From Sedimentisphaerales bacterium (GTDB lineage: Bacteria; Planctomycetota; Phycisphaerae; Sedimentisphaerales; SM23-30): a DNA stretch of 64,000 nt. Shown piece by piece: positions 1,628-24,191 of this stretch. The stretch is taken from NCBI GenBank assembly GCA_963666285.1, contig OY762711.1. One strand, given 5' to 3'. Both the position numbers and the translations under genes were made by a program. Under the pieces are notes generated by a model. The model was not told the DNA's origin, ran no database searches, and worked only from the letters and a program-made list of their open reading frames with translations. Each line of letters begins with the position of its first letter. Position 1 is the first letter of the stretch.

Positions 1628-1674
1628 TTTTCACTCCTGTTATTTAGGATGATGTCTTTTTTATTTTTGGTCGA

Positions 1675-2160: not shown

Positions 2161-2471
2161 ATTCAAACTCCTGTGGTATCTAAGTTTATCAATATTTGCC
2201 TGCAGTAGTAGATGCAGCAAACACTTACCAACAGCGACTTATTTAATCCATTTATATTTAGACATTTATGTTAATACAGACAATTTTTCGGCTATATATG
2301 AAGAGCTAAATAAGAAAATAAATATTATAATAATATTTTATTTGTTACTAAAATACATACAGCTTAAAAGTAAATTGAAAACAAGAATTATCAGTACTGA
2401 TAATTAGGGAAGATATGAAAAACAATCCAACAAAGAAAAATAACTTTAGAATATTATTTATTGGTCCAATA

Positions 2472-2706
2472 AATGTGCATTTTATGCTTCGCATCATATA
2501 CATGGCACACTTTTGACTGTTCAACATTATTCGCAAATGCCGGAACAGGACCAATTAAGAGATAAATTAAGGTATTCGACTATCCTTCGGCAAGCTCAGG
2601 ACAGGTCGTCTCACGTTTTGTTTAAATTCAGAGTGTTGCAGGAAGGCCTTTTAGGCGTTTTACCAAAGGCACTTCGTTATTGCATCTTAAAACTGCGAAA
2701 GTCAAC
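2472..2706. repeat. Dispersed structured intergenic repeat, copy A (with internal insertions)
   Basis: Shares the blocks CACTTTTGACTGTTCAACATTA..CGCAAA.GCCGGAACAGG, GTGTTGCAGGAAGGCC and TTAAAACTGCGAAAG with the copies at 36432 and 37941. Confidence 0.85.
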
Positions 2707-2710
2707 TAAA

Positions 2711-3940
2711 TTACAAACCAACAAAATCACCAAATTTAAATAAATTACCAATCGGCTCATCGGGAAAAGCGTTGGTTCTATTACTATCAATATGCAATGA
2801 AAACAATGCGAAACTTTCATGATTACCACTCACCTGGTAATGATGCTGACCTCTACCATCAAACATCAACCCCTGCCCCTGTGATAGATGATATTTTTGG
2901 TCGTCGATAAAAATAGTTTCTGAACCCTTGATTACAAATATAAATTTCTTTTCAGAGATATATACGTTTTTTACTGGAACATTAAGGCTCCGATCAGTTT
3001 CATTCTTTAAATAGCCAACACGAAATTGATCGGCCAAACTTTGCATAAGATTTAATTCATGTGTTTTTCCCTGGCTATCAAGAGAGTTCATTTTTACATT
3101 TTTGACATTACCCCGCTCACACCCTCCCTTGAAAGCAAACTTAAGAAATTCAATTAAATCCACTCCTAAACAATCAGTAAGCATATTTAGCGTAATCAAA
3201 GAAGGACATCTTTTATTTTGTTCAATACCAGATATCGTCGCAACAGTTACAGTTGATTCCCGAGCAAACATTTCTAAGCTATACCCCATTGTCGTACGAA
3301 GCATACGTAATGTGGAAAAATCAAATCTTCGCTTACAAGGTGAAAGTAACATATATTTATCAACTTTCTTTTGGAAATAATTTCCAGGCAGAAGAAATTC
3401 CGGCTGAGAAACTAATTTTGCGACATTATTATCATATGGTACTATCAATATTACGATTCTGGCCGGTCCGTCAATAACAGTAAACTTACCATTCGCCCCT
3501 CGGCAGGTAATAAATTTACCTTCTGAAATACTACAGTTTGTTGAATTGCAATCCAGACTGACTCCACCTTCTATCAGAAAAAAATGTTGTATAAAACACT
3601 TATTCATATAATATGAAAAACCGGTTTCCACTTCTAAATAAGCAACTGCCATACCAGGCAACTCATAAAACCAGCAATTGCCCATATTAGAGTCGAAATC
3701 AAATAAACAAGGTTTTACTGTTTGAGTTTGATGTCTTTTAGCGTATGTAATAAGATCCGGATAACTTACATCCAATGCTTCAGTAAGAGCCATAACGACC
3801 GGCATCGATGGTACAAATTTTCCATTTTCAATATTTGCAATAGTCTGCCTGGATACATCACAAAGTTTTGCGAGTTTATCACGACTAAGCGATTTTTGGC
3901 GACGAAGATATTTAATTATACTAAAATCAAATACAGCCAA
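2711..3940 (-). CDS. Tandem (XRE HTH + cupin) x2 transcriptional regulator
   Basis: Two XRE-type HTH segments (IKYLRRQKSLSRDKLAKLCDVSRQTIANIENG; LRMLRTTMGYSLEMFARESTVTVATISGIEQN), each followed by a cupin-like region. TTG start. Confidence 0.75.
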   Translation of the reverse strand: MAVFDFSIIKYLRRQKSLSRDKLAKLCDVSRQTIANIENGKFVPSMPVVMALTEALDVSYPDLITYAKRHQTQTVKPCLFDFDSNMGNCWFYELPGMAVAYLEVETGFSYYMNKCFIQHFFLIEGGVSLDCNSTNCSISEGKFITCRGANGKFTVIDGPARIVILIVPYDNNVAKLVSQPEFLLPGNYFQKKVDKYMLLSPCKRRFDFSTLRMLRTTMGYSLEMFARESTVTVATISGIEQNKRCPSLITLNMLTDCLGVDLIEFLKFAFKGGCERGNVKNVKMNSLDSQGKTHELNLMQSLADQFRVGYLKNETDRSLNVPVKNVYISEKKFIFVIKGSETIFIDDQKYHLSQGQGLMFDGRGQHHYQVSGNHESFALFSLHIDSNRTNAFPDEPIGNLFKFGDFVGL

Positions 3941-4462
3941 CGATTTAATGCCCTACAACAAGATAAATGATTTTTTATTAAAAAGAATATATATTTAATA
4001 TAGCTTTATATCAATCATAAGTAAAACTTTATTAAACTTATTTTTTAATAAACAAGAATTTCCTTGATGCAAAAGATATCACTCAACAGTCAAAACACCA
4101 TGCATCATATTACAAAACATAGGCTTATGAACGCAGAAACATTATTAAACAATCTCAACATATCATCATCTACACCTTATAAAATGCCACATTAAGAAAG
4201 AAAATATAATAAAATATGGTTAGCAGAATAATACGCAAAATGAACCAGACAGAAGAAATAATATAATCAAAAATGTCAGTTTCTCAAATTGGAAAAATCA
4301 CCCAGATAATAGCTGTTAGAGTAGAAGATTCCGCTAATTTCGCACAAAAACCAGCAGGCAAACTTAATCAATAGATGATGTCGTCAATGGTCTGGTTAAT
4401 CCAGTCGACAGCAAGTAACATTCCGATTAATCAATAAACATCCCAAAAAAGCTTATAGATTA

Positions 4463-5275
4463 TTAATTATTGTAATTATCACGTATTTTCTCAGTTTTTC
4501 TTTTAATACCTGGAATTATCTCTTTAATCCGTGTAATACGCTTGCTATCTGCAGGATGGGTGCTGAAAAAGTCTATTTCATCACCACCGGACTTTTCACT
4601 CATTGTTTGCCAGAAATCTATTGCAGCATCAGGGGCAAAACCAGCCAAAGTCGAAAGCTGAAGTCCAATTTCATCGGCTTCATATTCATGTTTTCTACTA
4701 AATGGCAACAACACTCCAACCTGGGAACCAAATGAAAACGCCGTCAGAAATGCCTGTCTTTTATTCTCTGACTCATCTTTTAACGTATAATCCACAGCCA
4801 TTGCGGTACCAGTAATTGCTAATTGTTGTGTCATTCGTTCTGCGCCATGCTTGGCAACAGCATGGGCTATCTCATGACCTATAACAATGGCAAGCTTGTC
4901 ATCGGTATCAGCGACCTCCAATAATCCTGTATAAACGACAATTTTCCCACCAGGCATACACCAGGCATTTACAGTTTTATCCTCAACCACTTGAATTTCC
5001 CAGTCAAAATCTGACGGATCAATACCTACTTTTTTGCCATATTTATCAACAGCCTTAGTAATGGTAGTACCAACCCGATTCACCATTGCGACCTTACTGG
5101 AATCTTTTGAAATTTTAGCCTCTTCCAGAAACTCTTTATATGATTCTCTGGCTAACTGATTTATTGTCGAGTCAGGAACCAGATTAAATTGCTGACGGCC
5201 AGTTATGGGTACATCCTGACAGCCGCCTATCATTAAAGCCAAAATAACAACAATATTTATAATATATTTCTTCAT
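4463..5275 (-). CDS. M48 family zinc metallopeptidase, lipoprotein
   Basis: Lipobox-like IGGC, NAWCMPGGKI, HEIAH (HExxH), EYEAD and STHP motifs. Confidence 0.93.
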   Translation of the reverse strand: MKKYIINIVVILALMIGGCQDVPITGRQQFNLVPDSTINQLARESYKEFLEEAKISKDSSKVAMVNRVGTTITKAVDKYGKKVGIDPSDFDWEIQVVEDKTVNAWCMPGGKIVVYTGLLEVADTDDKLAIVIGHEIAHAVAKHGAERMTQQLAITGTAMAVDYTLKDESENKRQAFLTAFSFGSQVGVLLPFSRKHEYEADEIGLQLSTLAGFAPDAAIDFWQTMSEKSGGDEIDFFSTHPADSKRITRIKEIIPGIKRKTEKIRDNYNN

Positions 5276-5530
5276 AGTTAGTTACCTCAATAAAAACCAG
5301 ACAAATAAGAAAAATGGACGAATATATATTATCTAATTCTAATACTTTTTCTAGAATAATACGATAAAAAGATATCAACATTTTTATCAATAGTGTATTA
5401 TTGATAACACAACAATGATTGTATGGGCAATTAATAAGTTATATCCAAAGCATAAATCACCAACTAAGGTTAAGATTTAACCATTTTACGCCTTTTTTTG
5501 GCATATTTTACTTTTGGTTTTCAAGTAATT

Positions 5531-5539
5531 TGATATAAT
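5531..5539 (+). promoter_or_regulatory. Extended -10 promoter candidate for the nqr operon
   Basis: TGATATAAT (TGn-TATAAT) about 100 nt upstream of the likely nqrA start. Confidence 0.45.
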
Positions 5540-5642
5540 TATACCCGAATGATCTATAAACGTAATGCTGGCTTTAACTGCGTTATTATTCGCTGCAGTT
5601 CTGCCATTTAGTCAATCCATAATAAACAAAAGTAGTATGTAT

Positions 5643-6968
5643 ATGAAATTTAGAGGCGGCTATAATATCGATTTAAGCAATAGTCCTGCTGCACGCGTCG
5701 ATACGGTTGATATACCTGACGAACTTTTCATCCCATTTTGCTATTCAACTTTTAATTTTTCTCAATTAAAAGTCGCTGATGGTCAAAAGGTGCAAAAAGG
5801 AGAAATACTGGCTATCGACCCGGAAAATTATAATCTGCCAATACTGGCATCAATGACCGGCATAGTAGAGCTAGGCGAAACATCAATCAAAATATCAAAT
5901 TTAAGCTCAAGCGGCCAGGCTGAGATACCAAACACAAGTGGCATCTCAAAACTTGTTCAAATGGGAGCCTGGCGGTATTTTACTGATGCTTTCAGTAAAA
6001 AAACCGCAAAAACGGAAAAGCCCGATGGAATTATTTTGAAGCTGGTTGACCTTGATAGCTATGTAATGACCAGCCAGTTGGAACTGATAGGGAATGTCGA
6101 CGACCTATGTAAAGGGATCGATTCGCTAGCAGAACTGGCTGAAAATGCCAAAATAATTATTGTTATATCTAATAAACAGGCAAAATCTGCCGAAATCAAG
6201 CCCAAAACTTTTGCTGGAAAAGGCAATATAGAACTAGTCACAATTCCAGATAAATATGGACAGGACAATTCAGCCCTCCTTGCCGACAAAGCCGGTTTTA
6301 CCCCCTACCAGAATATCTGGTCTGTTTCAACGCAAGGAGTATTTGCCGTTGATTCTGTAATCAATAAAGGCCAGTTCTGTGTTGATTTGATGTTTTCTTT
6401 TGCCGGTCCAGGCGTAAAAGAACCCAGATACATGAAAGCCCCTGTCGGTTACCCAATAGATAAGCTCTTAGATCAAGATAAAGTTATTGAAGAACCAGCA
6501 CGAATTATCAGTGGCGGAGTTTTAAGCGGAAGAACAATCGATATTTCAGAAAAAGGGCTGGCACACGATACTATTGGCGTTACCGTCTTGAGCGATAGTC
6601 CAAAACGTAAATTTCTAAAATTTGCTATGCTCGGCATGGATGATATGAGGTTTTCAAAGAAAATGACAACAGCCTTGGGAGGTGAAATCAGAGCCTGCAT
6701 CCAATGCGGTTACTGCCAGGAAGTATGTCCGGCAGGGCTAATGCCTGACTTGTTACATAAGATATTATATGCAAAAGACTTAGACAGAGCTGAAGTTTCA
6801 GGACTGCAAAAATGTGTTCGATGCGGACTGTGTTCCTATATTTGTGTTTCAAAAATTGATTTAACAGAAGAGTTTATTCAGGCTCAAGACCATATTGCTG
6901 CTGAACATGCAGAACACGCCGCTCACGAAGCTGCAAAAGCCAAAGAACAAGAACAGGAGGCGGTCTGA
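5643..6968 (+). CDS. nqrA: Na+-translocating NADH:quinone reductase subunit A-like protein with RnfC-type 2x[4Fe-4S] C-terminus
   Basis: NqrA-like start MKFRGGYNIDL (ATG 5643; ORF open from 5565), RIISGGVLSG, then CIQCGYCQEVCP and CVRCGLCSYIC. First gene of the six-gene operon. Confidence 0.75.
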   Translation: MKFRGGYNIDLSNSPAARVDTVDIPDELFIPFCYSTFNFSQLKVADGQKVQKGEILAIDPENYNLPILASMTGIVELGETSIKISNLSSSGQAEIPNTSGISKLVQMGAWRYFTDAFSKKTAKTEKPDGIILKLVDLDSYVMTSQLELIGNVDDLCKGIDSLAELAENAKIIIVISNKQAKSAEIKPKTFAGKGNIELVTIPDKYGQDNSALLADKAGFTPYQNIWSVSTQGVFAVDSVINKGQFCVDLMFSFAGPGVKEPRYMKAPVGYPIDKLLDQDKVIEEPARIISGGVLSGRTIDISEKGLAHDTIGVTVLSDSPKRKFLKFAMLGMDDMRFSKKMTTALGGEIRACIQCGYCQEVCPAGLMPDLLHKILYAKDLDRAEVSGLQKCVRCGLCSYICVSKIDLTEEFIQAQDHIAAEHAEHAAHEAAKAKEQEQEAV

Positions 6969-8098
6969 TGAAATTTATTAAGAATATATTCGACAAGGCC
7001 AGACCACACTTTGAAGAAAATGGAATTTTCAAGGTTTTCACACCTCTTTTTGAAGCGACAGAGAATTTCTTCTTCTCTCCTGATACCAAAACTATTGTCG
7101 GGCCACATGTTCGTAATTCCATGGAAATCAAACGCTATATGTCGATGGTGATTGTTTCGCTGATACCTTGCGTATTGGCAGCATTTTACTTTTTCGGCTG
7201 GCGTATTATCCCACTAATCATCACCTCATATGTTGTTGGCGGTATAGTCGAAGTAATTGTAGCCTGCTGTCGAAAAGAAGAAATCCAGGAAGGTTTCCTG
7301 GTCACAGGTTTACTATTCCCACTGGTACTACCACCTGACACACCTTTATGGGTATGTGCCGTTGGTGTGGCTTTCGGCGTATTTTTCGGAAAAGAGATAT
7401 TTGGCGGTACAGGCAGAAACCTGTTTAACCCGGCAATCCTTGGAAGATGTTTTGTCGGTCTTGCTTATGCCCCTGATATGGCGGGATGGGTAGAACCTGG
7501 TAGCGGCCCCTTAGGCAGAATGCTTGACTTCTGGCCTTTCAGCTTTTTCTGGGGAGCTTCGGCTCCGGAAGCAATCTCTACAGCAACTCCATTAGTTGCA
7601 TATGCTGATGGCAGTTCACCGAGCTACATGGAGATGTTTCTGGGCCAAACTACCGGATGCATTGGCGAGACATCAACCCTGGCAATCCTTATTGGAGCCG
7701 CAATTCTCATATTTTTCAAAATTTCAAACTGGCGTTCAACTGTTGCAACCCTGATATCATTTAGCGCCTTATCTGCTATAATGTATGCAATTGATCAGCG
7801 ATCAGCTGACCCCCAGAATTTTCCTCCTGTTCAGTACCATCTGCTGGCTGGCGGGATAATGTTTGGCTCAGTATTTATGGTAACAGACCCGGTAACCAGC
7901 CCGGCTACAAATGCAGGTCGAATTATCTACGGAATAATAATAGGAAGCGTAACCGTGCTAGTGAGAAATTTAGGCGGTTTTCCGGAAGGAATGATGTTTG
8001 CGATTCTTTTGGGTAACGTATGTGCTCCTCTTATTGATGAGGTTATCATTCGAATGCACGTAAAAAAATTCAGTGCAGTAAAAACTGCCGAAAACTAG
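6968..8098 (+). CDS. nqrB: Na+-NQR subunit B (NqrB/RnfD family)
   Basis: NqrB-type N-terminus (PHFEENG..FEATENFFFSP..PHVRNSMEIKR), GKEIFGGTGRNLFNPA, FMN-site-like STATPL, GCIGETS and TDPVTSP. Confidence 0.88.
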   Translation: MKFIKNIFDKARPHFEENGIFKVFTPLFEATENFFFSPDTKTIVGPHVRNSMEIKRYMSMVIVSLIPCVLAAFYFFGWRIIPLIITSYVVGGIVEVIVACCRKEEIQEGFLVTGLLFPLVLPPDTPLWVCAVGVAFGVFFGKEIFGGTGRNLFNPAILGRCFVGLAYAPDMAGWVEPGSGPLGRMLDFWPFSFFWGASAPEAISTATPLVAYADGSSPSYMEMFLGQTTGCIGETSTLAILIGAAILIFFKISNWRSTVATLISFSALSAIMYAIDQRSADPQNFPPVQYHLLAGGIMFGSVFMVTDPVTSPATNAGRIIYGIIIGSVTVLVRNLGGFPEGMMFAILLGNVCAPLIDEVIIRMHVKKFSAVKTAEN

Positions 8099-8179
8099 TA
8101 TTCAGCATTTTATTGATCAAATGCTGATATTTAGCAGCAATTTAACACTGGCTATATATGATCGGATATCAGATCTATC

Positions 8180-8779
8180 ATGAATGAAAATACAAAAACA
8201 ATTATATTTGCAGTTGTTCTGGCTATTGCGTGCGGAACACTACTTACCGGCATGAAGGAATTAACCAAAGATCGTCAGGAAGCCAATAAACTGGCTTTTA
8301 GAAGAGAAAATATCCTTCGAGTATTATCTGTTGAACTGCCGGAAAAACCAAATGCAAAATTGATCAATGAACTATATGAAGCTAATGTTTCACCTGAAAC
8401 CCAAAACGGCCTGGAATTCCATAAGCTAGTCAAAAATGAAGAAACCCTGGCTGTTGCAGTTCATTTTGAAGGCCCCGGGCTCTGGAATAAGATTAAAGGA
8501 TATCTTGCACTGGATTCAGAAATGAAGATCATCAAGGGTATCACTTTTTACGAACACGAAGAAACACCGGGACTTGGCGGTGAAATAGAAAAAGAATGGT
8601 TCAGAGAAAAATTTGTCGGGCTGCCATTGGCTGACGCTGAAGGTAAACTGGCAATTAATATAGTTAAACCAGGTGCATCAACACATGATACTGAAATTGA
8701 AGGTATCAGTGGCGCAACAATAACTTGTGAAAAAGTTGAAGACATGTTAAGAGTCCTCAACACAGAATTAAAGAAATAA
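8180..8779 (+). CDS. nqrC: Na+-NQR subunit C (FMN-binding, NqrC/RnfG family)
   Basis: N-terminal TM, GPGLW, HEETPGLGGEI and SGAT flavinylation motif. Confidence 0.88.
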   Translation: MNENTKTIIFAVVLAIACGTLLTGMKELTKDRQEANKLAFRRENILRVLSVELPEKPNAKLINELYEANVSPETQNGLEFHKLVKNEETLAVAVHFEGPGLWNKIKGYLALDSEMKIIKGITFYEHEETPGLGGEIEKEWFREKFVGLPLADAEGKLAINIVKPGASTHDTEIEGISGATITCEKVEDMLRVLNTELKK

Positions 8780-8811
8780 TATTATCAACCTAAACAATAC
8801 CAGGTTAAATT

Positions 8812-9465
8812 ATGGCTGAAGGAAAATGCAAATCCTGCGCATCAAAAATATGCAGCGGAAAATCTAAAGAGACGATGGAAGAAGGTTTATGGAAAAATAA
8901 CCCTATCTCCATCCAACTGCTCGGTATATGCTCTGCACTGGCAGTAACAAGCACTCTAAAAAATTCAATCGTCATGAGCATTGCCCTAACGATTGTCTCT
9001 ATAGGTACAAATATTGTAGTATCATACATAAGGCACATAATACCAAGAAGAATCAGGATGATAGCAGAAGTTGCCATTATCGCTGCTTTTGTTATTATGT
9101 TTGACCAGTATCTGAAGGCATTCAACTTCGAGATGAGCAGACAGCTAGGCCCTTATGTTGGTCTTATTATTACAAACTGTATTGTAATGGGAAGAGCCGA
9201 AGCTTTTGCCCTGCATAATCCTCCAACTTTAAGCGCTATTGACGGGCTGGCAAATGGAATTGGCTATTCGATTGCGATTTGCATGGTAGGAAGTGTACGA
9301 GAGATATTTGGTAAAGGACAGCTTCTCGGCTTCCAGGTACTGTCGGAAAACTGGTACACACCAAATGAAGTTATGGCTCAGGCTCCGGGAGCTTTTATTG
9401 TTCTTGGCGTGATTATTGCAATTGCAAACTTTATCGGAAAAACTAACCTGGAAGAAAAAGAATAG
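8812..9465 (+). CDS. nqrD: Na+-NQR subunit D
   Basis: NNPISIQLLGICSALAVT, VGLIITNCIVMGRAEAFA and APGAF. Confidence 0.9.
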   Translation: MAEGKCKSCASKICSGKSKETMEEGLWKNNPISIQLLGICSALAVTSTLKNSIVMSIALTIVSIGTNIVVSYIRHIIPRRIRMIAEVAIIAAFVIMFDQYLKAFNFEMSRQLGPYVGLIITNCIVMGRAEAFALHNPPTLSAIDGLANGIGYSIAICMVGSVREIFGKGQLLGFQVLSENWYTPNEVMAQAPGAFIVLGVIIAIANFIGKTNLEEKE

Positions 9466-9529
9466 AAACGGTTTATTGAATCAATTACATTAAACCTGTT
9501 AAAAATAATAATATATTAGGATTTGATTC

Positions 9530-10135
9530 ATGGAAACATCTGCATGGGTAATATTGATTGCTGCGATATTTACTAACAATATCCTTTTGAGCAACTTTTT
9601 GGGAATGTGTTCATTCCTGGCATGTTCAAAACAGTTGCCAACAGCATTTGGATTGGGAATTGCTGTAACATTTGTAACGACTCTGACTGTGATAATAAAC
9701 TACGGAATATATTATGGCATACTGGTTGAAGACGCACCGCTATGCCCGGCTGATATTACTCATCTTCAGTTTATAGTATTTATTGCGGTTATTGCCGGTT
9801 TTGTCCAATTTGTAGAGATGTTCATAGAAAGAGTCAGCCAGAAGCTATATTTTGCTCTTGGTGTATTCCTCCCACTAATTACAGTTAACTGCGCAATCCT
9901 TGGTGCCGGACTTTTGATTGTAATTCGCAACTATAGTTTTATCCAATCCGTTGGTTTTGGCTTTGGTGCAGGACTAGGCTGGGCTTTAGCAATCCTGCTT
10001 ATGGCAGGTTTGAGGCAAAAACTAAACTACAGTAATGTTCCTAAACCATTCCAAGGTGTTGCCGTTATTATGATAGTGACCGGCATAATGGCAATTGCAT
10101 TTTTTGGATTCAGCGGAATGGTTATTATCGGTTAA
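9530..10135 (+). CDS. nqrE: Na+-NQR subunit E
   Basis: NILLSNFLGMCSFLACSK and LGVFLPLITVNCAILG. Confidence 0.9.
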   Translation: METSAWVILIAAIFTNNILLSNFLGMCSFLACSKQLPTAFGLGIAVTFVTTLTVIINYGIYYGILVEDAPLCPADITHLQFIVFIAVIAGFVQFVEMFIERVSQKLYFALGVFLPLITVNCAILGAGLLIVIRNYSFIQSVGFGFGAGLGWALAILLMAGLRQKLNYSNVPKPFQGVAVIMIVTGIMAIAFFGFSGMVIIG

Positions 10136-10256
10136 CAAAAAACGCAATAATACAATATTTAATTGCATGGAACATCACATTTAATGATAAAACTGATCTA
10201 TGCAAAAGAAGGTGAATAACTAAGTACTAAGTATTGAGTACTGGGAACAAATTGAT

Positions 10257-11360
10257 ATGATTTACTTATTCTCTATATTAGTTTTTACAATAATTATTGT
10301 TATATTAACAGCTGCCTTAATCTTTGCCGAAAAAGTACTGGTAAACTATGGTGTATGCAAAATCAACATTAACGATGGTACTAAAGAATTGGAAGTTGAC
10401 GGCGGCCAGTCACTACTATCGGCTTTTTATTCAAACAAAATCTTTATACCATCAGCCTGCGGCGGCAAAGGTTCTTGCGGTTTCTGCAAAGTAACCGTTC
10501 CAAATGGTGGCGGTCCTGTTCTGCCGACAGAACTGCCCTACCTCAACCGAAGAGAGATTAAAACTAATATCAGACTGGCATGCCAGGTAAAAATACGTGA
10601 GGACATAATTGTCACAATGCCGGAAGAATACCTGGCGGTACAGGAATTTGAAGCAGAGGTTATCAGCACTATACCTTTGACCTCTGATATTAAAGAAGTT
10701 CAGTTTAAACTAATTTCACCGGAAATAATGAAGCAGAAAGCAGGCCAGTATATTCAGCTGATGTGCCCTGATGAAGATGACTTCGTTTACCGGGCATATT
10801 CTATAAGCTCACCTCCATCCAAACCTGATATAGTAGAAATCATTGTCAGGCTCGTTCCAGGCGGTATCGGATCTACTTATATCCATAACCTGGAAGTGGG
10901 CGACAAGGTAACCCTTACAGGTCCATATGGTGACTTTATCCTGAACGAAGAGCCTGACACCGAAATGATCTGTGTTGGCGGTGGTGCCGGCATGGCCCCA
11001 ATGAAAAATATCATCTATACAATATATGAAAAATGGCCTGACAGGAAATGCACCCTGTACTTTGGCTGTCGCAATACCTCCGATACAATCTATCTTGACA
11101 TGTTCAAAGAATTTAAAGAAGAACATCCTGCATTTAACTATGTCTATGCCCTTTCAGACCAGCTTGCCCCAGAAGAAGCTGCTTCCTGGGACGGTGAAAC
11201 CGGGTTTATCCATCTGTCTGTTGATAAATACCTGGAAGAAAATACCAAGAGTCAGGCATTCCTCTGCGGCCCGCCGCTAATGATTGATGCAGTCACAAAG
11301 ACATTGAAATCAAAAGGTCTGGAAGATGATGATATCTTCTTCGATGATTTTGGCGGATAA
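10257..11360 (+). CDS. nqrF: Na+-NQR subunit F (2Fe-2S, FAD and NAD-binding)
   Basis: N-terminal TM, SACGGKGSCGFC..RLACQ, RAYSIS, GGGAGMAP, LCGPP and terminal FDDFGG. Confidence 0.9.
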   Translation: MIYLFSILVFTIIIVILTAALIFAEKVLVNYGVCKININDGTKELEVDGGQSLLSAFYSNKIFIPSACGGKGSCGFCKVTVPNGGGPVLPTELPYLNRREIKTNIRLACQVKIREDIIVTMPEEYLAVQEFEAEVISTIPLTSDIKEVQFKLISPEIMKQKAGQYIQLMCPDEDDFVYRAYSISSPPSKPDIVEIIVRLVPGGIGSTYIHNLEVGDKVTLTGPYGDFILNEEPDTEMICVGGGAGMAPMKNIIYTIYEKWPDRKCTLYFGCRNTSDTIYLDMFKEFKEEHPAFNYVYALSDQLAPEEAASWDGETGFIHLSVDKYLEENTKSQAFLCGPPLMIDAVTKTLKSKGLEDDDIFFDDFGG

Positions 11361-11388: not shown

Positions 11389-11805
11389 ATGAGTGTTACT
11401 ATGAAACGAGCTATTTCTCTACTTCTAACATGTTTAACTGTTGTGAGTTCCGGAACCGCAGCTCCTATGGAAGATATCATAGGTCGCCCTATTGTAATTG
11501 TTGATGCCCAAGTCACAGAACCTATTGACGATACAGATGATCGCAAACGGTACCTTATATACTCCATGGTCCTGATCCTGTTCTACATCATATTCCAGAA
11601 TAGCAATTTCTATGGTTTTCAACTGCTTTGTTTATATTTTTCAATTATCTTCTTATTATTAAGCATCAAAAAAGGAATAATAAAAAGTATAGCTGTCTGG
11701 ATTTTGCACATAATATCAAACCCAATCATCGCTGGTATCATATGGATAATAATAGCATTCATATCCTGTACAAATTGGGATAAGTTTATAAGGCATACGG
11801 TCTGA
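11389..11805 (+). CDS. Hypothetical small membrane protein
   Basis: 138-aa ORF with a signal-like N-terminus and about 3 hydrophobic segments; overlaps the 3' end of the convergent FtsK-like gene by 20 bp. Confidence 0.45.
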   Translation: MSVTMKRAISLLLTCLTVVSSGTAAPMEDIIGRPIVIVDAQVTEPIDDTDDRKRYLIYSMVLILFYIIFQNSNFYGFQLLCLYFSIIFLLLSIKKGIIKSIAVWILHIISNPIIAGIIWIIIAFISCTNWDKFIRHTV

Positions 11806-14800
11806 ATTTTTCCAATACCCCCTGTTCTTCACTATAAAATAAAGCCCTATGGAACCCCAGTTGATTAGCTGCCGGGGAATCGATCAGATTACTTGAGTCA
11901 GTCAAAGACATCTGGAACAGAACCCTGTTGTCAAATTCTCGCACCGTAGCCCTGTCACAGGCTCTCTCGAGTGATGATAAGGTATCTACCCAGACAATAG
12001 TATGAATACCAAATACAGGACCCTCTCGTAATAGTTCAGCAAACATTTTATCAGGTTTAGGCTTTTCCTCTGCATCCATTGAAAAGCTGAAATCATCTTC
12101 ACCCTTTCGCAAAACACGATAACGATGCAGTCCGTAAATCATTATAAATACCGGAGGTGCATCAACAACATCATTTTCTGTTCTTTCCTGCAGTTCCTCA
12201 GATAAGGCAGCAAAAGTCTCTTCGACAGCCTTTAGCGGCACATCAATATAGTCAATACCAAGCTCTTCAGCAAGAGCAGTCAGTTTGCCTTCGGTGGCAC
12301 TGCCAGCCGGGCTGCCGTCAAGGATAATATAGCGAGCATCCTTATTCTGGGCAGCAAGTGATTTGATTGCAGCGGCAGCTATTCCTAATGCAGCATCATC
12401 ACGCTGGCCGGTAATAAGCAGGTTAGTTCCACTCTGGCGCTGGAAAGTAACTGCAGTCGGCGACTTAATACTGACAGGCTCACCCAGCCAGGCAACCGGA
12501 GAATGAATATCCGCCTGAGTTTGGCCTGAGATAAAGTCCACCAGCAGTTTATTATCAACAATATGTGCCGGAGCATTTCCTTCAAACACAATCATCTTAG
12601 GTGGCTGATAATTATCTTTTGCTGCCTGAGATACCACTTTATCGATATTATTATCCCTGACCAATTCACTTATCCAGGCAGTCTGGAAAGGACTGTTTCC
12701 TGTAACCATTCCGCCTGCATCATTATAAATTGCCTCACCTGGCCTGTTAAGCAGTCGAGCCGCAGTATTATCATCATCCAGAATAAGCTGAGAATCAGCC
12801 TCAGAACATTGCATTGCAATCCTAACTGCCATCTGACCGATAGTACTTCGAGCCAGAGAAGCCGGACCGCCCAGAGTTTGCGAACCAAGTATCACATGTA
12901 TGCCAAATGCTCGCCCCTGACGGACAAGCTGTTCCAGCAGCAAAGCTGCATTCTGGGAAATCTGGTCATCTTCGCTGAAAAATATCTGGAACTCATCAAC
13001 TATCAGTATCGCACGCGGCAGCTTAATACCAGTTGCTTCTCGATATCCTGCGATATCCTGGACCCCGGCATTACGAAAATCGTTTCCCCGCCTGGTCATT
13101 TCATTGTCAAGCTTCTGCAGAACACTAAGACCAAATTCCCGATCAGATTCAATAGCAACTACCCGGGCGTGAGGCAGCTGTTTTTCGGCATATGCCTTGA
13201 ACTCAACACCTTTTTTAAAGTCTATCAAATACAGCTCAACCTGCTCAGGTGAATACCAGGAAGACATAGCTGCAATTATAACATGCAGCAAAGTAGATTT
13301 ACCGGAACCTGTCTTACCAGCTATAAGAATATGCTGCGACACTCCCCTGCCAAGCTTGAGATACTGCAAACGAGTAGCTCCTGTTCGGCCAATTGGAATT
13401 ACCAGTTCCCGGCCATTATCCTGAGACCAGTAATTCCCATCTTCGGGTACTACACAATCAAAAGGCACTTCCACCCGCAGCGAATCCTGACCGGCTTTGC
13501 CAACTTTATGCATTATATCTGTGATTACACTTTCAGCGGGCGGCATATCAAGAGAAAGAGGAAACTGTGACAAAATACTATCCTGCCAGACAAATGTTCC
13601 ATCTTCATACTTAAGCCAGGTGCTATTCGCCTTTAAATCATCAAGGTCGATACCATCCGGCAAAGGCTGGCGACTGTCAAAGGCTATCAAAGTATAAACT
13701 CCACATCTTGGCCCACTGTTAATTATACTCTTAAGATGCTTAACACTTTCTTCATTGAAATTCTGCGGAAAATCTGCTATCACCAGGAAACGATACGGTT
13801 CGGCGAGCTCGCCGGCCTGCTTGTTGTACTGCTCGATAGTACTGAACTCATTTCGAAGATATTTCTGGATAACATTTTCCATATGAGCAGTAAGGTCTTC
13901 CAGTTGAGACTTAATATGTGAGGGACTGGTCCAGATACGCCCGCCAATAAGAGCTTCTTCATAATCAGCAGCATGCATAAATCCGGCAAAGTTTTCACCA
14001 AGACCAACAGGGTCCACTATAGTAAAATGTACCCTTCCGGCAGGTAACGAAGTAAATAGACGTAACACTGCCGCTTTAAGAATATCAATTGCATCTTCAC
14101 GACCATCTCTTTTTGCCTGCAGCAGCATAGAACATTTATCTGGAAATGTTAATGCCGCAGACATATTCAATTGGTCAGGCAACTCAAGCGGTCCGGCTTC
14201 CAATGCTTTTGGTTCAATTATAGTAGTATCAACCAAAAACTCGCCAACACGAATTTTATCATGATTGGCCCCACTTTGCCAGTTATTCCAGCTTTCATCG
14301 TTCCAGTTTATTTTGAGCTCATTATTTAAACTTTCCACCTGAGAAACTGCAGCCCGGATAACTGCCGCACCTTCTCGCCATCGCTGCATTAGAAGTTCAA
14401 AGTCATTTTCATATCTTTCTGTATACTCACTTTCCTGCTCAACAAATCTCTTTCGGGCAGATGCAGTATTAAGTTCAAAATCTTTCTTTATTCTTTCACA
14501 CTTTTGCTTATTGTCATCCTCAAGCTCTTCAAGCTGTTCTTGCCGCTTCTGCTTCAACTCTAATAGTTTTTTACCGCTTTCGGCATCCAGCTTTTCATAA
14601 GTACTATTTACCTTGGCTTTTGCCTGAGCAACTGCCTGTTCCAGATTTTGTTTAAGCTCAGATTTTTTACTCTCAAGTTCAGCTTTTGCCTCTTCCTTTG
14701 CTTTCTTTAATTCAGCCATTGCCTTAGAGTAACGTATCTCAAGAATTACAAGAGAAGCTGAAAGATCCTGCATAATGCCCTGATATAACTTAACAGCTTT

Positions 14801-15661
14801 GACTTTTCCGCTTCGCCAGAACAGAAAAATACCTGCCAGAGAAACAACAATTGCTCCAAACCCGGCAACAACTCCTGCAATTTTAAACGGCGGTAGAGCC
14901 TGTCCCTGGCTCTCACATACAAACCATGCTCCCGCAACAGCAGCACCACAAACCAGGAGAACAATCATATATGGAACCACACCTGAGGCAATCTTACATC
15001 CGCTTATATTTCCCAGCCATGCAATATTTTCTTTAGCCCTGTCTAATACAACCTTGAATTCTTTATCCGGATTTTTAACTGCATTATTTTCAGGTTCCAG
15101 AACCGCTATTTTATCAGGAGTAATATGATAGCGTTTCATGATCCACTGAGCATATTCCTGCTGCTCGTGGACATGCTCTTTTGCCTTCGGCATAGCCTCA
15201 TCTGTTTCTCGTTTATCCTGAGAACACCGCTTTAGCACAGCTTCATATGCAGTATCTGCGGATAACTGCTCATATTCATTTCCTGCCTGAACATCCTTAA
15301 TTTTTAATTTGGCCTTTGCTTCAGCTTCGGCTTTTTCCTCGGCAATATAATCCTCTAATCGAGTAATATCGCTATCAAATTTGTCTGTAATTTCCTGAAG
15401 CTTCTGTTTGTATTCATTTTCATATTTGTTTACCAACTGATCATATTTAGTTTTTTGCTCTTTAGTAGCCTCTTCAAACTCTCTTTTAACTTCAGATTCA
15501 GAAGACTCTTTTGCCTGCTCTATCTGATCAATCACATCAACACATTTCTCTTTGCTAAGTTTAATTACTTCAGCAAGAGCAGCTTTCTGCAAATCTCTAT
15601 AATCCATCCCGCTAAAATCGGGAGCTTGTTCCTTTAAATAGTCAGCTAGATTATCTTTCAT
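11786..15661 (-). CDS. FtsK/SpoIIIE-domain membrane ATPase, EssC/EccC-like coupling protein
   Basis: Long K/E-rich coiled coil interrupted by two TMs, then three FtsK-like domains. The middle one has Walker A AGKTGSGKST, LIDFKKG, Walker B LIVDEFQ and QGRAFGIH; the flanking two are degenerate. Confidence 0.88.
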   Translation of the reverse strand: MKDNLADYLKEQAPDFSGMDYRDLQKAALAEVIKLSKEKCVDVIDQIEQAKESSESEVKREFEEATKEQKTKYDQLVNKYENEYKQKLQEITDKFDSDITRLEDYIAEEKAEAEAKAKLKIKDVQAGNEYEQLSADTAYEAVLKRCSQDKRETDEAMPKAKEHVHEQQEYAQWIMKRYHITPDKIAVLEPENNAVKNPDKEFKVVLDRAKENIAWLGNISGCKIASGVVPYMIVLLVCGAAVAGAWFVCESQGQALPPFKIAGVVAGFGAIVVSLAGIFLFWRSGKVKAVKLYQGIMQDLSASLVILEIRYSKAMAELKKAKEEAKAELESKKSELKQNLEQAVAQAKAKVNSTYEKLDAESGKKLLELKQKRQEQLEELEDDNKQKCERIKKDFELNTASARKRFVEQESEYTERYENDFELLMQRWREGAAVIRAAVSQVESLNNELKINWNDESWNNWQSGANHDKIRVGEFLVDTTIIEPKALEAGPLELPDQLNMSAALTFPDKCSMLLQAKRDGREDAIDILKAAVLRLFTSLPAGRVHFTIVDPVGLGENFAGFMHAADYEEALIGGRIWTSPSHIKSQLEDLTAHMENVIQKYLRNEFSTIEQYNKQAGELAEPYRFLVIADFPQNFNEESVKHLKSIINSGPRCGVYTLIAFDSRQPLPDGIDLDDLKANSTWLKYEDGTFVWQDSILSQFPLSLDMPPAESVITDIMHKVGKAGQDSLRVEVPFDCVVPEDGNYWSQDNGRELVIPIGRTGATRLQYLKLGRGVSQHILIAGKTGSGKSTLLHVIIAAMSSWYSPEQVELYLIDFKKGVEFKAYAEKQLPHARVVAIESDREFGLSVLQKLDNEMTRRGNDFRNAGVQDIAGYREATGIKLPRAILIVDEFQIFFSEDDQISQNAALLLEQLVRQGRAFGIHVILGSQTLGGPASLARSTIGQMAVRIAMQCSEADSQLILDDDNTAARLLNRPGEAIYNDAGGMVTGNSPFQTAWISELVRDNNIDKVVSQAAKDNYQPPKMIVFEGNAPAHIVDNKLLVDFISGQTQADIHSPVAWLGEPVSIKSPTAVTFQRQSGTNLLITGQRDDAALGIAAAAIKSLAAQNKDARYIILDGSPAGSATEGKLTALAEELGIDYIDVPLKAVEETFAALSEELQERTENDVVDAPPVFIMIYGLHRYRVLRKGEDDFSFSMDAEEKPKPDKMFAELLREGPVFGIHTIVWVDTLSSLERACDRATVREFDNRVLFQMSLTDSSNLIDSPAANQLGFHRALFYSEEQGVLEKFRPYAL

Positions 15662-15706
15662 TTTTGTAGTTTCTCCATGCCTGAAATCTAAATTTTATCA
15701 GGTGCC

Positions 15707-15919
15707 TTACAAACAGTCATTTTTTATCCTGCTTACCAGTGCATCAAGCTGTTCCATAGCGGATTTCGATTTCCTGAGTTCTGTTTCCAGTGGTTCAATA
15801 TATCTCTTTTCAAAATAATCAGCCATCTCATCTCGCCAGCTAAGCCTCAACTCACTCCAATCACGGCCAAGTTCTTTAGCGATAAGAGAAAGTCTTGCAT
15901 GTGCATCTTTAACGCTCAT
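15707..15919 (-). CDS. Small WXG100-like helical protein (70 aa)
   Basis: ATG at 15919, 1 nt after the upstream stop. MSVKDAHARL...ELRLSWRDEMADYF...: helix-W-x-D-helix. Confidence 0.7.
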   Translation of the reverse strand: MSVKDAHARLSLIAKELGRDWSELRLSWRDEMADYFEKRYIEPLETELRKSKSAMEQLDALVSRIKNDCL

Positions 15920-15920
15920 T

Positions 15921-16499
15921 TTACTGCCCCATTTCCTGTTTGTCTTTATCGTCAGAACCTTTGTCAAATTCCTGGTCTTGTTCAATCTCACCGTCACGCA
16001 TAAAATCAACCCCTTCCATGGAACTGTAATCGGCATATTTCTCTAGTGAAATAATCATTGATTCCAGGTTTCCGCATGCTTTGGGCAGACTTTCTTCTGT
16101 TATAGATGCCAGTCCCTGAACAGCACCTTTATAATTAAAGATTTCTTTCTCTAGGATACTGCTCCAACGCTTGATTGCCTTAAGCTTCTGCTCAGCTTCT
16201 TCCAGTTGAAACTTTGCCTTCTGATATGCTTTTTCCTCATCCACAAATGAACGCCGATTGCCTAACATTGTCTTTTCGTTTTTCTTTCGCTGCAGCTCTC
16301 GTCGTGCTGTCTGACACTGCTCATGACGTTTGCGATATATAGTCTCCCAATGTTTACGCTGATCCTGGACTAGCCAGTTTCTAAACCGCTGAATATCTGA
16401 CTCAGCCTCACTAAAAGAAGATTTAAGAGCATCCCTGGCTTTAATCAAACCTACCCTGAACTCTTTTAGATTATCTACTGAACTAATATTGGCTCGCAT
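15921..16499 (-). CDS. Helical/coiled-coil protein, putative extended WXG100-like substrate or chaperone
   Basis: 192 aa, essentially all predicted helix, with an acidic C-terminal tail. Lies between two WXG100-like genes; AAGGA SD upstream. Confidence 0.7.
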   Translation of the reverse strand: MRANISSVDNLKEFRVGLIKARDALKSSFSEAESDIQRFRNWLVQDQRKHWETIYRKRHEQCQTARRELQRKKNEKTMLGNRRSFVDEEKAYQKAKFQLEEAEQKLKAIKRWSSILEKEIFNYKGAVQGLASITEESLPKACGNLESMIISLEKYADYSSMEGVDFMRDGEIEQDQEFDKGSDDKDKQEMGQ

Positions 16500-16548
16500 T
16501 ATATCTTTCCTTTTTTCGACAAGTAATTAATACAAAGATATCTAATTT

Positions 16549-16821
16549 TTATCTCTGTCTTAGATACTCTTCAATATGATGAGCCTTTTTGAGCAGTGTT
16601 TTTGAATGCATTTCAGACATTTCAAGAAATCTGCTCAATGACTTTACCGTCAGGTCAAACTCTGACGAAAATTTCACCTGCTCCTGGTCGTTCCATGTTC
16701 GCTCAAGGGCACCCATTTTTGCCTTTAAACTGCCAAACAGCTTCTGCATCTCACCGTTAAATCTATTCAGCTCTTTAGCAAACCTTCTCAGTTCATCAGG
16801 ATCTACATTAACCTTGGCCAT
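16549..16821 (-). CDS. WXG100 family type VII secretion target-like protein (90 aa)
   Basis: MAKVNVDPDELRRFAKEL N-terminus typical of EsxA-like proteins, central TWNDQ (W-x-D in place of WxG), size of 90 aa. Confidence 0.85.
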   Translation of the reverse strand: MAKVNVDPDELRRFAKELNRFNGEMQKLFGSLKAKMGALERTWNDQEQVKFSSEFDLTVKSLSRFLEMSEMHSKTLLKKAHHIEEYLRQR

Positions 16822-17878
16822 TTTCGTCTCCTGTTTTTATCTCTTGCTTTTCATATAATTTAGGTTTATTTATAAATATCAGCATCAGGACAACACCAAG
16901 TACTATCGAAAAAATCGACAGATTTTGAGATATTGTCAACTTATCAAATTCAAGCGGACTATCTGCCCGTAATCCTTCGATAATAAATCGGCTTATTCCA
17001 TATAGGATCAAAAGGTAGGTAAAGGTTATTCCTTTATTCTTGCGTCTGGAGAAACTGAATAACAGCACCCCACATATTAATAACGCGTTTAAGGAAGAAT
17101 ATATTTGGGTAGGATGAATTTTTTTCATTGGATATTTATCAGAACGCAAATCTGCCACTAAATTTTCCGGTAATTCAGTTATCGGTCTAGGATATTTATA
17201 ATAATCCTCCCTTTTTTCTTTGGGAATGACTTCTTTGCTAACTACAAATTCTCCCTGATCATTCAAATATCCACCATAATATTCCAAAGGCAGCTCAATT
17301 TCCGGACCGGAATCCCTGTCAAAGTCTCGATGCAGCTGATGAGAGTATGGTAAGCTGTAACGTATTGTTTTACCTCCGTTTACCCCCATTTCGGTAATAT
17401 CGTTGACTGCTGGGAAAGTTATCCCCCATGAGTGATCGCAAACCTTTCCATAGCAGCAGCCGTTCATAAAACAGCCAATTCTGCCAAATGCCAGACCAAG
17501 CATAAGGGCTGGGGCCAGGATATCCATATAAACCCTGATTGGCATTTTTTTGATTCTTGCATATATCAGCATTGTAATAGAAGCCGTTATGAAACCTCCG
17601 ACAAACTCCAGGCCGCCACGCCAGATTTTTATGACATCAAAGAAATTATCCTGATAGTCGCTCCAAAAATGAACTACATGGAATATTCGGGCTCCAATAA
17701 CACCGCCAAGCATGGCATAAATTATCAAATTTGCTATATTATCGGGATTTTCACCGACTCTTTTAGCATTTCTACTGGCCAGCATGCCGCCAAAGATAAA
17801 TGCCAAAACCAGCATCAGGCCGTAACTCTGAACTGTAAGGTTTATACCGGGGATTGTAAATACTTCTGGTCTCATCAA
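16808..17878 (-). CDS. lgt: Prolipoprotein diacylglyceryl transferase
   Basis: SYGLM, GARIFHV, GGLEFVGG, GRIGCFMNGCCYG, HPTQIY and RFIIEGLR motifs; long hydrophilic insertion. Confidence 0.93.
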   Translation of the reverse strand: MMRPEVFTIPGINLTVQSYGLMLVLAFIFGGMLASRNAKRVGENPDNIANLIIYAMLGGVIGARIFHVVHFWSDYQDNFFDVIKIWRGGLEFVGGFITASITMLIYARIKKMPIRVYMDILAPALMLGLAFGRIGCFMNGCCYGKVCDHSWGITFPAVNDITEMGVNGGKTIRYSLPYSHQLHRDFDRDSGPEIELPLEYYGGYLNDQGEFVVSKEVIPKEKREDYYKYPRPITELPENLVADLRSDKYPMKKIHPTQIYSSLNALLICGVLLFSFSRRKNKGITFTYLLILYGISRFIIEGLRADSPLEFDKLTISQNLSIFSIVLGVVLMLIFINKPKLYEKQEIKTGDENGQG

Positions 17879-21668: not shown

Positions 21669-24191
21669 CTATGGTGCCATTCGAGTAAATTTTCTGCTTC
21701 CAATAGTAGCCTTATCATAATTATTCGGCCAGAAACTCATCTGGAACGACATTCCACTCCTGGTAGAATCCCATCCGGCACTAAACGCCGTTGTCCAGCC
21801 CGGCATCTTACGTAGAACAACAAGTCGACTAAAGGCTCCATCATCTGATTCGATATCATATTGTGTCGATACTGAAATTGCGTATTTCGGATTCAATTGA
21901 TAACTAACTCCAGCAGCTATATACTGGGCCGCCTGCTGTTCCAACGGATCACCATTATTCAAATAGCGATGGCCAAAATAGTACCTTACCAGAGACTCAT
22001 GCCTAAATGATATTACATTCTCAATAGCTGACATTTCTGAATCAGTCAGATTATAGTTAATACCACCGGCATAATCTGCTACGTCAGAAATATTCCAGCT
22101 CCAATCGCCAGTTGCATGGTTACTTAAACACTGGTTATATTGGCTGCGACCGGCCAGTCCCAAACTAACAAGGTCATGATTAACAAACGGGCTAAAACCA
22201 TATTGTGTATCAGGCCGGGAATAAATAAATCTACCCGGCAATTCAGCATCTTCAACCTCGTCACTTACATATGTCAAAGATGAATTAAAAGTAAAAACAT
22301 CTACAACCCGCTTATTATCTTTCGGGCCTCTCTTGGTCTGCCAACGCTGACGTAAAGCGAAATTATATACATCCTGAGTTAACAGGTCTCTATTTGTAGT
22401 ATCTGCCCAAAAGACATTAACTTCAGGCCGCACTATATGACGTATGCCGTCAATGTCAAACAATTCTGAACGTGTAGAACGATCAAGATGCCAGAACTGC
22501 ATTGAACTACGAAACCCAAATGAACCTTGCAGAAAATCATCATTTTTTCCAGACTCATAATCATATTCAGGATATAAGCTATCAGAATAATCAGAAAATA
22601 CATACGTTCCAATAGCAGTAGGAACAAAGCTGAAACTACCAAACTTTACCGGCAGCATAAGTTCATGACGACTGACCGCATAGGTTGTTGATTCTGGATT
22701 AATAATATCAGGAAACAGACTTTGCTCTTCCTTACCACCAAAACCAGGAACTAAACGATCACCCGCTATCTCTTGAAACTGTGAATAATAGCCATCATGC
22801 TGATAAACAAAAATATCCATTAAGTCTTGTCCGGCAAGATATAAACCAACTTTCGGCTCCTGGACATAAGAATAATCAAAGTCATCTAAATGAAAACCAT
22901 ACAAAAAATCCAAAGCCCAGTTATGGTCTGATTGTTTTAAGTATATAGAATTTTCTTTATATTGCTCGGAATCAAACTCACGCTCATACCAGCTTTCCAG
23001 GAAGTTTCTATCACTCTCATGGTTCAACATAACCGACATTTGCCAGTTATAAGGCAGATATTGGCGATGATTCCATTTAATTCTTCCACGAAACTCTTCA
23101 TCCGGCGCAACATTGTCACGAGAACCCAATCTGCCCAGCTCATCTTCACCACTATCATGAACCAGATAACTCTTGAATTCACCGAAAGATAGTTCGTTAG
23201 TGTATTCCGACTCAATACCAACTGCCGGCCCTCGTTTAGTATAACCATCCAAAAGAAGATTTGTCTTTGACTCACCTGACTGCTTCAAGCCAAGCAAAAG
23301 AGGTAAATCCCATTCAGATTCTATAGAAAAACCATATTCAGAATCCAAACCACCACTTAATCTTTTCAAAGGAGTAGGCGAACTTTTAAGATCACCCCTG
23401 GCATGAGGCCACCAGAAAACTGTCGGCAGCCCCTCAGCATTCAAAGTAAGCTCATCAATCTCCACCTGAGGTATGTTCTGATCATCTGAACTTGTCGAAT
23501 CATCCTGATATATATCAATCTGCCTGGCACCTATCCATAAATGAGGTTGATGAAATGAATCATTACTAAATTTAACCTTTTTTGCTCGAATATGGCTATC
23601 GGCATACTGTTTAATCTCCTCTGCCCTTATATAAATAGGCAGCTCGCTCTCATCTACCAGCTCGAACTTCAATACACCATCCAGAATCAGCATTTCACCG
23701 CTGTCAAAATTAAAATACACCTTTTCAGCAGTAAAAACATTATCTTTAACAGGCTTATTGTTATTAACAGCAAGATTATCAACAGCAATTCTTATATCAC
23801 CTTCAAGATAAACACCGATGGGAGAATTGATTTTGGCTTCACTGCCTCTGGCCAAAGACTGCAGCAACTCCTGCTGTCGGTAATATATAACCGCATTTTC
23901 AGCCTGGAATTCAATCGCCGGCTGACCAGCAATTCCAGGAAGACTGGCCCAAAAACCACCAGTACAGACAAAGACATCTCCACCATCAGGTAACTTCTTG
24001 GAAATAAACTCGTTCTGTAAAACAACATAAAGTGGGCGTGCCTTTTTATCCGGCAAATCAGAAGAACTCTCCTGAGAATACACTTTTGATGTCGGCAAAA
24101 TTACCAAAACAAGACAAATAACAGTATTGAGAATACCGCTTTTTTGGATAAGATTAAGAAATAAAGGATTAAACTTCATATATTCTGCCAT
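21669..24191 (-). CDS. lptD: LptD-like LPS-assembly outer-membrane protein
   Basis: 840 aa, N-terminal OstA-like region, large beta-barrel C-terminus with RHIVRPEV and LRQRWQTKRG. Upstream of waaF. Confidence 0.7.
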   Translation of the reverse strand: MAEYMKFNPLFLNLIQKSGILNTVICLVLVILPTSKVYSQESSSDLPDKKARPLYVVLQNEFISKKLPDGGDVFVCTGGFWASLPGIAGQPAIEFQAENAVIYYRQQELLQSLARGSEAKINSPIGVYLEGDIRIAVDNLAVNNNKPVKDNVFTAEKVYFNFDSGEMLILDGVLKFELVDESELPIYIRAEEIKQYADSHIRAKKVKFSNDSFHQPHLWIGARQIDIYQDDSTSSDDQNIPQVEIDELTLNAEGLPTVFWWPHARGDLKSSPTPLKRLSGGLDSEYGFSIESEWDLPLLLGLKQSGESKTNLLLDGYTKRGPAVGIESEYTNELSFGEFKSYLVHDSGEDELGRLGSRDNVAPDEEFRGRIKWNHRQYLPYNWQMSVMLNHESDRNFLESWYEREFDSEQYKENSIYLKQSDHNWALDFLYGFHLDDFDYSYVQEPKVGLYLAGQDLMDIFVYQHDGYYSQFQEIAGDRLVPGFGGKEEQSLFPDIINPESTTYAVSRHELMLPVKFGSFSFVPTAIGTYVFSDYSDSLYPEYDYESGKNDDFLQGSFGFRSSMQFWHLDRSTRSELFDIDGIRHIVRPEVNVFWADTTNRDLLTQDVYNFALRQRWQTKRGPKDNKRVVDVFTFNSSLTYVSDEVEDAELPGRFIYSRPDTQYGFSPFVNHDLVSLGLAGRSQYNQCLSNHATGDWSWNISDVADYAGGINYNLTDSEMSAIENVISFRHESLVRYYFGHRYLNNGDPLEQQAAQYIAAGVSYQLNPKYAISVSTQYDIESDDGAFSRLVVLRKMPGWTTAFSAGWDSTRSGMSFQMSFWPNNYDKATIGSRKFTRMAP

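Follow-up and report, generated by a model that had tools for sequence, protein, structure and literature searches.

A 2024 survey of subtypes among type VII secretion systems (T7SS) is limited to Bacillota and Actinomycetota. The type VII-like cassette described here, with four genes A-B-C-D for three small helical proteins and one ATPase, belongs to a planctomycete and lies in a stretch of 64,000 nucleotides (the window) of contig OY762711.1 (Sedimentisphaerales bacterium, assembly GCA_963666285.1). WXG100 systems in other phyla were reportedly surveyed by Sutcliffe in 2011. Zhang 2012 (PMC3482391; Table 1, footnote 6) lists a solo WXG protein accompanied by a YueA-like ATPase in which only the middle one of three HerA/FtsK domains is active, names planctomycetes and verrucomicrobia among the lineages and terms the systems 'mobile versions of T7SS'. 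Bell 2024 (PMC11090510) describes, in defence loci, ATPases without transmembrane (TM) helices, together with a coiled-coil protein bearing a nuclease and then a DNA-mimic-like gene. HP0062/HP0066 are described as a minimal type VII set by Uchiyama et al. 2016.

The cassette belongs to the class with solo WXG protein and three-domain YueA-like ATPase, of which it is best read as a domesticated form without a toxin that probably acts in the manner of a minimal type VII ATPase-WXG100 module. It shares with the entry of Zhang 2012 the ATPase layout, the solo WXG protein and the two phyla, Planctomycetes and Verrucomicrobia. It differs in mobility: the clade in the Planctomycetes-Verrucomicrobia-Chlamydiae group (PVC) does not look like the mobile elements of the class, the tree of D agrees with phylum and the genes are kept even where they are dispersed. 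The footnote is silent on B, on C, on a TM anchor and on cargo being absent. The module of Bell 2024 is alike in having an active central domain among three ATPase domains, in its long N-terminal coiled coil, its gene order and its two WXG100-like proteins plus one coiled-coil protein. Unlike this CoCoNuT/TerY-P-associated EssC-like module, the cassette has a TM hairpin in D, no nuclease in B and a housekeeping context. The class is thus already in print in both papers, and the level of surprise in the first-pass annotation, made from the letters of the window, was too high. No description was found in the searched literature of a form that is unarmed, anchored and passed on vertically and that has natural TM-less and dispersed variants. 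The preferred reading, held at a probability of about one half, is ATP-driven export of A and of a B:C rod across the inner membrane to the periplasm.

The first-pass annotation had described four tightly packed minus-strand genes and read them as a stripped-down T7SS-like module in a diderm with lipopolysaccharide (LPS). All four open reading frames (ORFs) are present as described in position and length. The ATG of C is 1 nt past the stop codon of B; C is probably translationally coupled to B. The module reading is supported by the profiles of A and C, by the matches of D and by conservation of the block.

Protein A is EsxA-like as annotated, with 42 bits against PF06013 (cut-off 27.3). The closest solved relative of its profile in PDB is H. 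pylori HP0062 (3fx7, E 2e-13), followed by EsxB and EsxA. HP0062 has a WRD turn, is a homodimer and has an LPS-diderm host. The turn of A is W-x-D in place of W-x-G. W43, D45 and Y86 are invariant (64/64), and the C-terminus has a conserved EEYLxQR, position Y86+4 being R in 56 of 64. Protein C appears to be a distant, shortened WXG100 protein. Its turn is likewise W-x-D, not W-x-G, with W28 and D30 in 64/64; hhalign aligns it with A (prob 85, E 6.6e-6), and its profile weakly reaches S. aureus EsxA (2vs0, E 0.005). The C protein of the window itself has no Pfam match. Its C-terminal cysteine, C69 (window 15707-15715), is present in 60/64 homologues; it may, at a guess, form a periplasmic disulfide or be a site of modification.

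Protein B is modelled by AlphaFold2 (AF2; pLDDT 82) as two long helices (~8-79 and 86-162) with a variable, acidic, disordered tail. It has no meaningful Pfam match and no nuclease domain. The family comprises 3225 representatives at E<=0.001. Fold searches return only generic coiled coils (best Z 11.7), ESCRT-III/Snf7 (Z ~9) among them, and assignment of B to PspA/ESCRT-III is not adopted. Its PDB sequence matches, to the major histocompatibility complex, are spurious. A weak lead is that B may be a WXG100 protein split by insertion: the hhalign probability is 11 for residues 1-55 of B and, in a different register, 40 for residues 105-160, and both segments score above 20/20 column shuffles. 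Some B proteins bear an Imm33-like (PF24719) C-terminal domain. It is found on five among the 80 loci defined below (L040, L044, L046, L052, L111; four at or over cut-off) and on 64% of an Atlas cluster of 433 members. Weak tests for longer fusions gave two matches in 8000 candidates scored for B, both Imm33-like, and 0/77 for A. A, B and C are single-copy in their own genome, with no fused or paralogous forms there.

Protein D is a membrane FtsK/SpoIIIE ATPase, as had been annotated. It scores 103 bits against FtsK_SpoIIIE (Pfam cut-off 24), and its hydropathy profile places TM helices at 224-242 and 263-281, with a loop of ~20 residues between them and basic residues after the second. Both arms flanking this hairpin would be cytoplasmic. 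The chain consists of an N-terminal helical arm (to ~215), the TM hairpin (224-281), a return helix of ~160 residues, a domain like the EccC/EssC domain of unknown function (DUF; ~440-725), an active FtsK-type ATPase (~730-1020; GKTGSGKS at 782, DEFQ) and a degenerate D3-like domain (~1026-1290). The AF2 model of residues 92-1290 (pLDDT 83) runs from a long helix at the N-terminus through the hairpin into an unbroken helix of ~160 residues after the second TM helix, and ends in three alpha/beta domains. The N-terminal domain superposes on the EccC5 DUF (8rin; Z 15.4, rmsd 3.8, 224 aligned), the middle domain on active motors of FtsK/EccC (Z 24-27) and the C-terminal domain on EccC/EssC D3 (6j17, Z 21.3, rmsd 2.9, 228 aligned; 6tv1, Z 18.6). 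The middle domain, and no other, has an intact Walker A motif (61/61 rows). Because the domain matches come in this order and Walker A occurs only in the middle domain, the modelled layout of D is DUF-active-D3, three RecA domains without D2. No FHA domain is matched in D, the N-terminus of which is helical in the model.

The best PDB sequence matches of D are EccC (4nh0, E 7e-35), YukB (8e-27) and EccC5 (6e-26); FtsK (9e-8) and TcpA (5e-7) are weaker. Foldseek places EccC/EssC first, above FtsK and TcpA. The best NCBIfam matches are EccCa, EssC and EccCb (E ~1e-25 to 1e-30), all well under the family cut-offs: D scores 107 against TIGR03924 (cut-off 509) and 103 against TIGR03928 (cut-off 778), about one-fifth of the EccCa/EssC cut-offs or less. 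It scores 30 bits against PRK10263 (cut-off 1566). Like EccC of T7SSa (4nh0, 7np7) and EssC/YukB of T7SSb (4lya, 9qks), D has a TM hairpin, a stalk, a DUF, one active ATPase, a D3-like end and WXG100 partners. Unlike them, it has neither D2 nor FHA, and its stalk and N-terminal arm are far longer. The cassette is a member of neither T7SSa nor T7SSb. In T7SSa, EccC consists of a DUF and three ATPase domains, and the model of D has three RecA-type domains only; in T7SSb, EssC has an N-terminal FHA and four ATPase-like domains, a layout absent from D. An ordinary FtsK is encoded separately in the genome. In a quick single-domain tree (62 rows) housekeeping FtsK is set apart by a branch of support 95, EssC/EccC, TcpA-like proteins and the D clade form a polytomy with long branches, and D and plasmid-borne versions share one branch (SH-aLRT 99). 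Grouping of the ATPase with EssC/EccC, implied by the annotation, stands for the best sequence and structure matches and for the separation from housekeeping FtsK; the tree leaves EssC/EccC and TcpA-like proteins together, and D is unlike the TcpA-like proteins in architecture and context.

A genome scan for relatives gave at least 582 confirmed matches, and the best 80 loci were kept (by label Planctomycetota or Verrucomicrobiota, except for one of Bacteroidetes). The order A-B-C-D is found in 64 of these best 80 PVC loci, in one of them with A incomplete; contig ends interrupt 13 others, and at three (L059, L077, L102) some small genes are missing nearby. The four-gene set is not due to chance, because the order recurs in 64/80 related loci. 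The nearest relatives of D are Sedimentisphaerales records, which makes a planctomycete of this group the most likely host. No conserved neighbour family is present in the 80 loci: the top clusters occur in at most 8 loci and are common gene families, antisense shadows being discounted. Recurring toxin, immunity, defence, relaxase or mating-pair genes are not found near the 80 loci.

Among 301 genomes of the phylum, A is present in 36, B in 34, C in 34 and D in 35, and all four in 33 (D orthologue threshold E<=1e-165, best match in the remaining genomes 1e-18 or weaker, two candidates scored per genome). The distribution is patchy, ~12% of sampled genomes. In one genome (G067) C is at a contig end. 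In two others (G008, G176) A and D are present, and B and C are not found with the profiles used. The variant cassettes of these two genomes (L162:4086-10671 and L163:7042-13566, respectively) consist of A, a separate membrane gene of 119-124 aa carrying the TM part and an ATPase of ~960 aa, together with a HEAT-repeat membrane protein of ~980 aa.

In family f8 the genes are dispersed, with a single copy of each. The positions are 0.71 (A), 2.66 (B), 1.94 (C) and 0.23 Mb (D) in the one-contig genome G156, and 2.50, 4.30, 4.30 and 5.92 Mb in G043 (seen at L113, L119, L164-L167). In nine genomes of the family checked, with A and D elsewhere, B-C are adjacent in five, A-B-C in one and B stands alone in three. 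In the inheritance tree of D (FastTree, 75 rows; 5/80 loci left out for too little sequence) the number of phylum changes equals the minimum, 2, and class changes number 7 (minimum 4, shuffled mean 28.9). No relative was confirmed on viral contigs. Because the D tree follows phylum, dispersed genes are retained and viral contigs gave no match, the sequences point to mostly vertical inheritance of the PVC cassette with frequent loss. The patchy distribution could hide some transfer. At two loci, L105 (Bacteroidetes label) and L102 (Kuenenia label), D is nested among Verrucomicrobiota and Planctomycetaceae, which is a sign of mis-binning or transfer.

Plasmid relatives are armed. The Helicobacter plasmid locus (L145) comprises a WXG100 gene, a coiled coil with a WHH nuclease, a SUKH immunity gene, a 77-aa helical protein and an ATPase, at 823 aa shorter than D. 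The Caballeronia plasmid locus (L143) has the same gene order within a TerY-P/CARF cluster. The B profile matches a Rhodococcus plasmid protein at 25.9 bits (shuffle maximum 4.3) and a Deinococcus protein at 17.3 bits, in each case over the N-terminal half and above shuffles; the best other ORF of its own genome scores 12.9. Because B homology is marginal in Caballeronia (6.5 bits) or undetected in the Helicobacter nuclease protein (1.5 bits), the coiled-coil proteins of these two loci are positional analogues of B only. Judged by sequence, B appears to be the cargo-less counterpart of the coiled-coil-plus-nuclease proteins at its position, and the PVC form is the unarmed, anchored version of the cassette, because the plasmid relatives carry nucleases and TM-poor ATPases. 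Three plasmid coiled-coil proteins (L142:9453-10397, L143:4575-5885, L144:10168-11148) have a cysteine pair at the predicted hairpin tip; B of the window has none.

The host makes LPS, because LpxC and LpxB in its genome both score far above cut-off. The window also holds a GT9 heptosyltransferase, an ABC exporter and a PQQ/BamB-like propeller. This much of the annotated LPS envelope is upheld; the label of the putative LptD-like outer-membrane protein is not, with no Pfam match at E<=0.1. Partner proteins were searched for in the genome, which is 97% complete, with control genomes that gave matches. EssB/YukC, EsaB/YukD, EsaA and LXG are not found (B. subtilis control positive; EssA unsearched), nor are EccB and EccD (C. 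glutamicum control positive; EccE and MycP unsearched). The cassette is in this unlike T7SSa and T7SSb. The claim that partners, toxins and immunity genes are missing thus holds for EssB, EsaA, EccB and EccD and for recurring neighbours, and does not extend to EssA and MycP.

Under the preferred reading, by analogy with the biology of EccC/EssC, D would form a hexamer that the TM hairpin fixes in the inner membrane, with only ~20 residues in the periplasm, and the motor would be suspended on a helical stalk of ~24 nm. The conserved C-terminal helix of A, probably a homodimer, would be bound by the D3-like domain. B and C would pair as a rod, like LXG-Lap or PE-PPE, without a toxin tip; LXG domains and small helical partners are described as forming such a rod (PMC10801868). 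Driven by the single active ring, the helical bundles would reach the inner membrane or cross it into the periplasm, and their action there would be their own or that of the Imm33-like domain borne by some B proteins. No outer-membrane step is provided by the cassette. In T7SSb, translocation requires the Walker motifs of D1 only (PMC13355648).

Several observations weigh against export. Every other T7SS membrane component tested is not found, and D supplies only two TM helices. S. intermedius EssC needs all four ATPase domains (PMC13355648), and D2 is missing in D. The literal WXG turn and the C-terminal YxxxD/E signal are absent from A (64 aligned rows). The hairpin is deleted (~60 residues) in the D proteins of L081, L084, L087 and L090, three of which bear the label Prosthecobacter, and the ATPases of the plasmid relatives have no TM helix or one marginal TM helix by hydropathy. 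No linked cargo of known activity is present in the genome or the 80 loci, and no demonstration of export by this class was found in the searched literature. Experimental studies of the PVC cassette were not found in the searchable literature either, in which subscription papers are mostly uncovered and bioRxiv supplements unseen. Transposon-sequencing supplements for P. limnophila and V. spinosum contain no WXG100 term (locus tags unmapped, presence of the cassette in these species unchecked).

The same observations bear on a second explanation, possible and not favoured, in which D is a non-secretory ATP-driven remodeller on the cytoplasmic side of the membrane, where it would build, take apart or thread bundles of A, B and C, for example to stabilise membranes or to signal stress. 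The TM hairpin would then be a mere tether, and armed relatives would free their nuclease inside the cell. Such a cytoplasmic motor is a serious rival because channel partners are not found in the genome and the armed relatives are TM-poor, the Caballeronia one lying in a TerY-P/CARF locus. It gains further from the four D proteins just named, in which a short basic-hydrophobic tip replaces the hairpin (L100 is also listed) and the whole A-B-C-D cassette is kept, from the separate TM gene of G008 and G176, and from the modelled stalk, which would put the motor far from the membrane. Speaking for export, the TM signal is retained in 68/72 full-length D proteins, and the DUF-D1-D3 layout with WXG100 partners is typical of export systems; the ESCRT-III/Snf7 matches of B, lying among generic coiled coils, lend the remodeller little. 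The hairpin has been lost in one verrucomicrobial lineage, and the natural TM-less D is a control on the need for an anchor.

A role in antagonism or defence, with toxin cargo encoded elsewhere riding on B:C, or with B as a decoy or immunity carrier, is unlikely. The nuclease and SUKH immunity gene in Helicobacter and the coiled-coil protein of the TerY-P locus in Caballeronia, all at the position of B, would fit it, as would the Imm33-like tails and the patchy distribution. Against this stand the single-copy A, B and C, the failure to find LXG in the genome, the 80 loci without conserved neighbours or recurring toxin, immunity or defence genes, the lack of any PADLOC match for A-C and the agreement of the D tree with phylum. 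It is very improbable that D translocates DNA or serves as a conjugative coupling protein, with the small genes as accessories. For this speak the active domain, which, taken by itself, has FtsK motors as its best structural matches (Z 27, rmsd 2.8, 260 aligned), and the single-domain tree, in which TcpA-like proteins are not separated from EssC/EccC and D. Against it, the genome has a separate FtsK, the FtsK group forms one side of the 95-support branch, the RecA domains of D are three in tandem, with matches to DUF and D3, relaxase and mating-pair genes do not recur nearby and linkage to WXG100 genes is tight.

For the export reading, a bolder form is tentative and somewhat doubtful: a toxin-delivery element turned into a tame, vertically inherited housekeeping system, a type VII machine with a single membrane protein in LPS diderms, in which a hexamer of D alone, its 12 long helices forming a conduit of ~24 nm, would export toxin-free helical rods acting in the periplasm or membranes of planctomycetes, some lineages delivering an Imm33-like immunity domain and not a toxin. 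Open questions on type VII systems are whether EccC/EssC alone is the translocation path and whether WXG100 proteins have roles beyond toxin carriage. A toxin-free system of four genes with a single membrane protein, which also occurs naturally in TM-less and split variants, would allow a direct test of both. If export is true, type VII-like function would reach bacteria with an LPS outer membrane.

Table 1. Cassette genes and other features of the window
Feature	Position	Strand	Description
gene A	16549-16821	minus	90 aa, EsxA-like WXG100 protein
gene B	15921-16499	minus	192 aa, long two-helix hairpin
gene C	15707-15919	minus	70 aa, short, probably distant WXG100-like hairpin
gene D	11786-15661	minus	1291 aa, EccC/EssC-like ATPase
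lgt	16808-17878	minus	prolipoprotein diacylglyceryl transferase, PF01790; local neighbour, outside conserved module
hydrophobic ORF	11389-11805	plus	138 aa, convergent with D, 20-nt overlap with end of D
Na+-NQR-like operon	5565-11360	plus	six genes
LptD-like protein	21669-24191	minus	840 aa, putative outer-membrane protein
ATLF-like protein	33604-34971	plus	455 aa, weak sub-cut-off Pfam ATLF (zinc-metallopeptidase-like) match, E 4.6e-6
topoisomerase VI subunit A	47113-48276	minus	Spo11-like
low-GC region	1-6000		GC 33-36% (genome 41%); helix-turn-helix protein, M48 peptidase, two ORFs without Pfam match

The GC content of the cassette is 0.424 and that of the genome 0.411. The 3' end of lgt and the start of A overlap by 14 nt; this linkage is found only at L032 and L033 among the 80 loci. 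The 138-aa hydrophobic ORF has no Pfam match and no homologue in its own genome or the fetched loci. In the first gene of the Na+-NQR-like operon, NqrA/RnfC-type domains are joined to a C-terminal 4Fe-4S dicluster.

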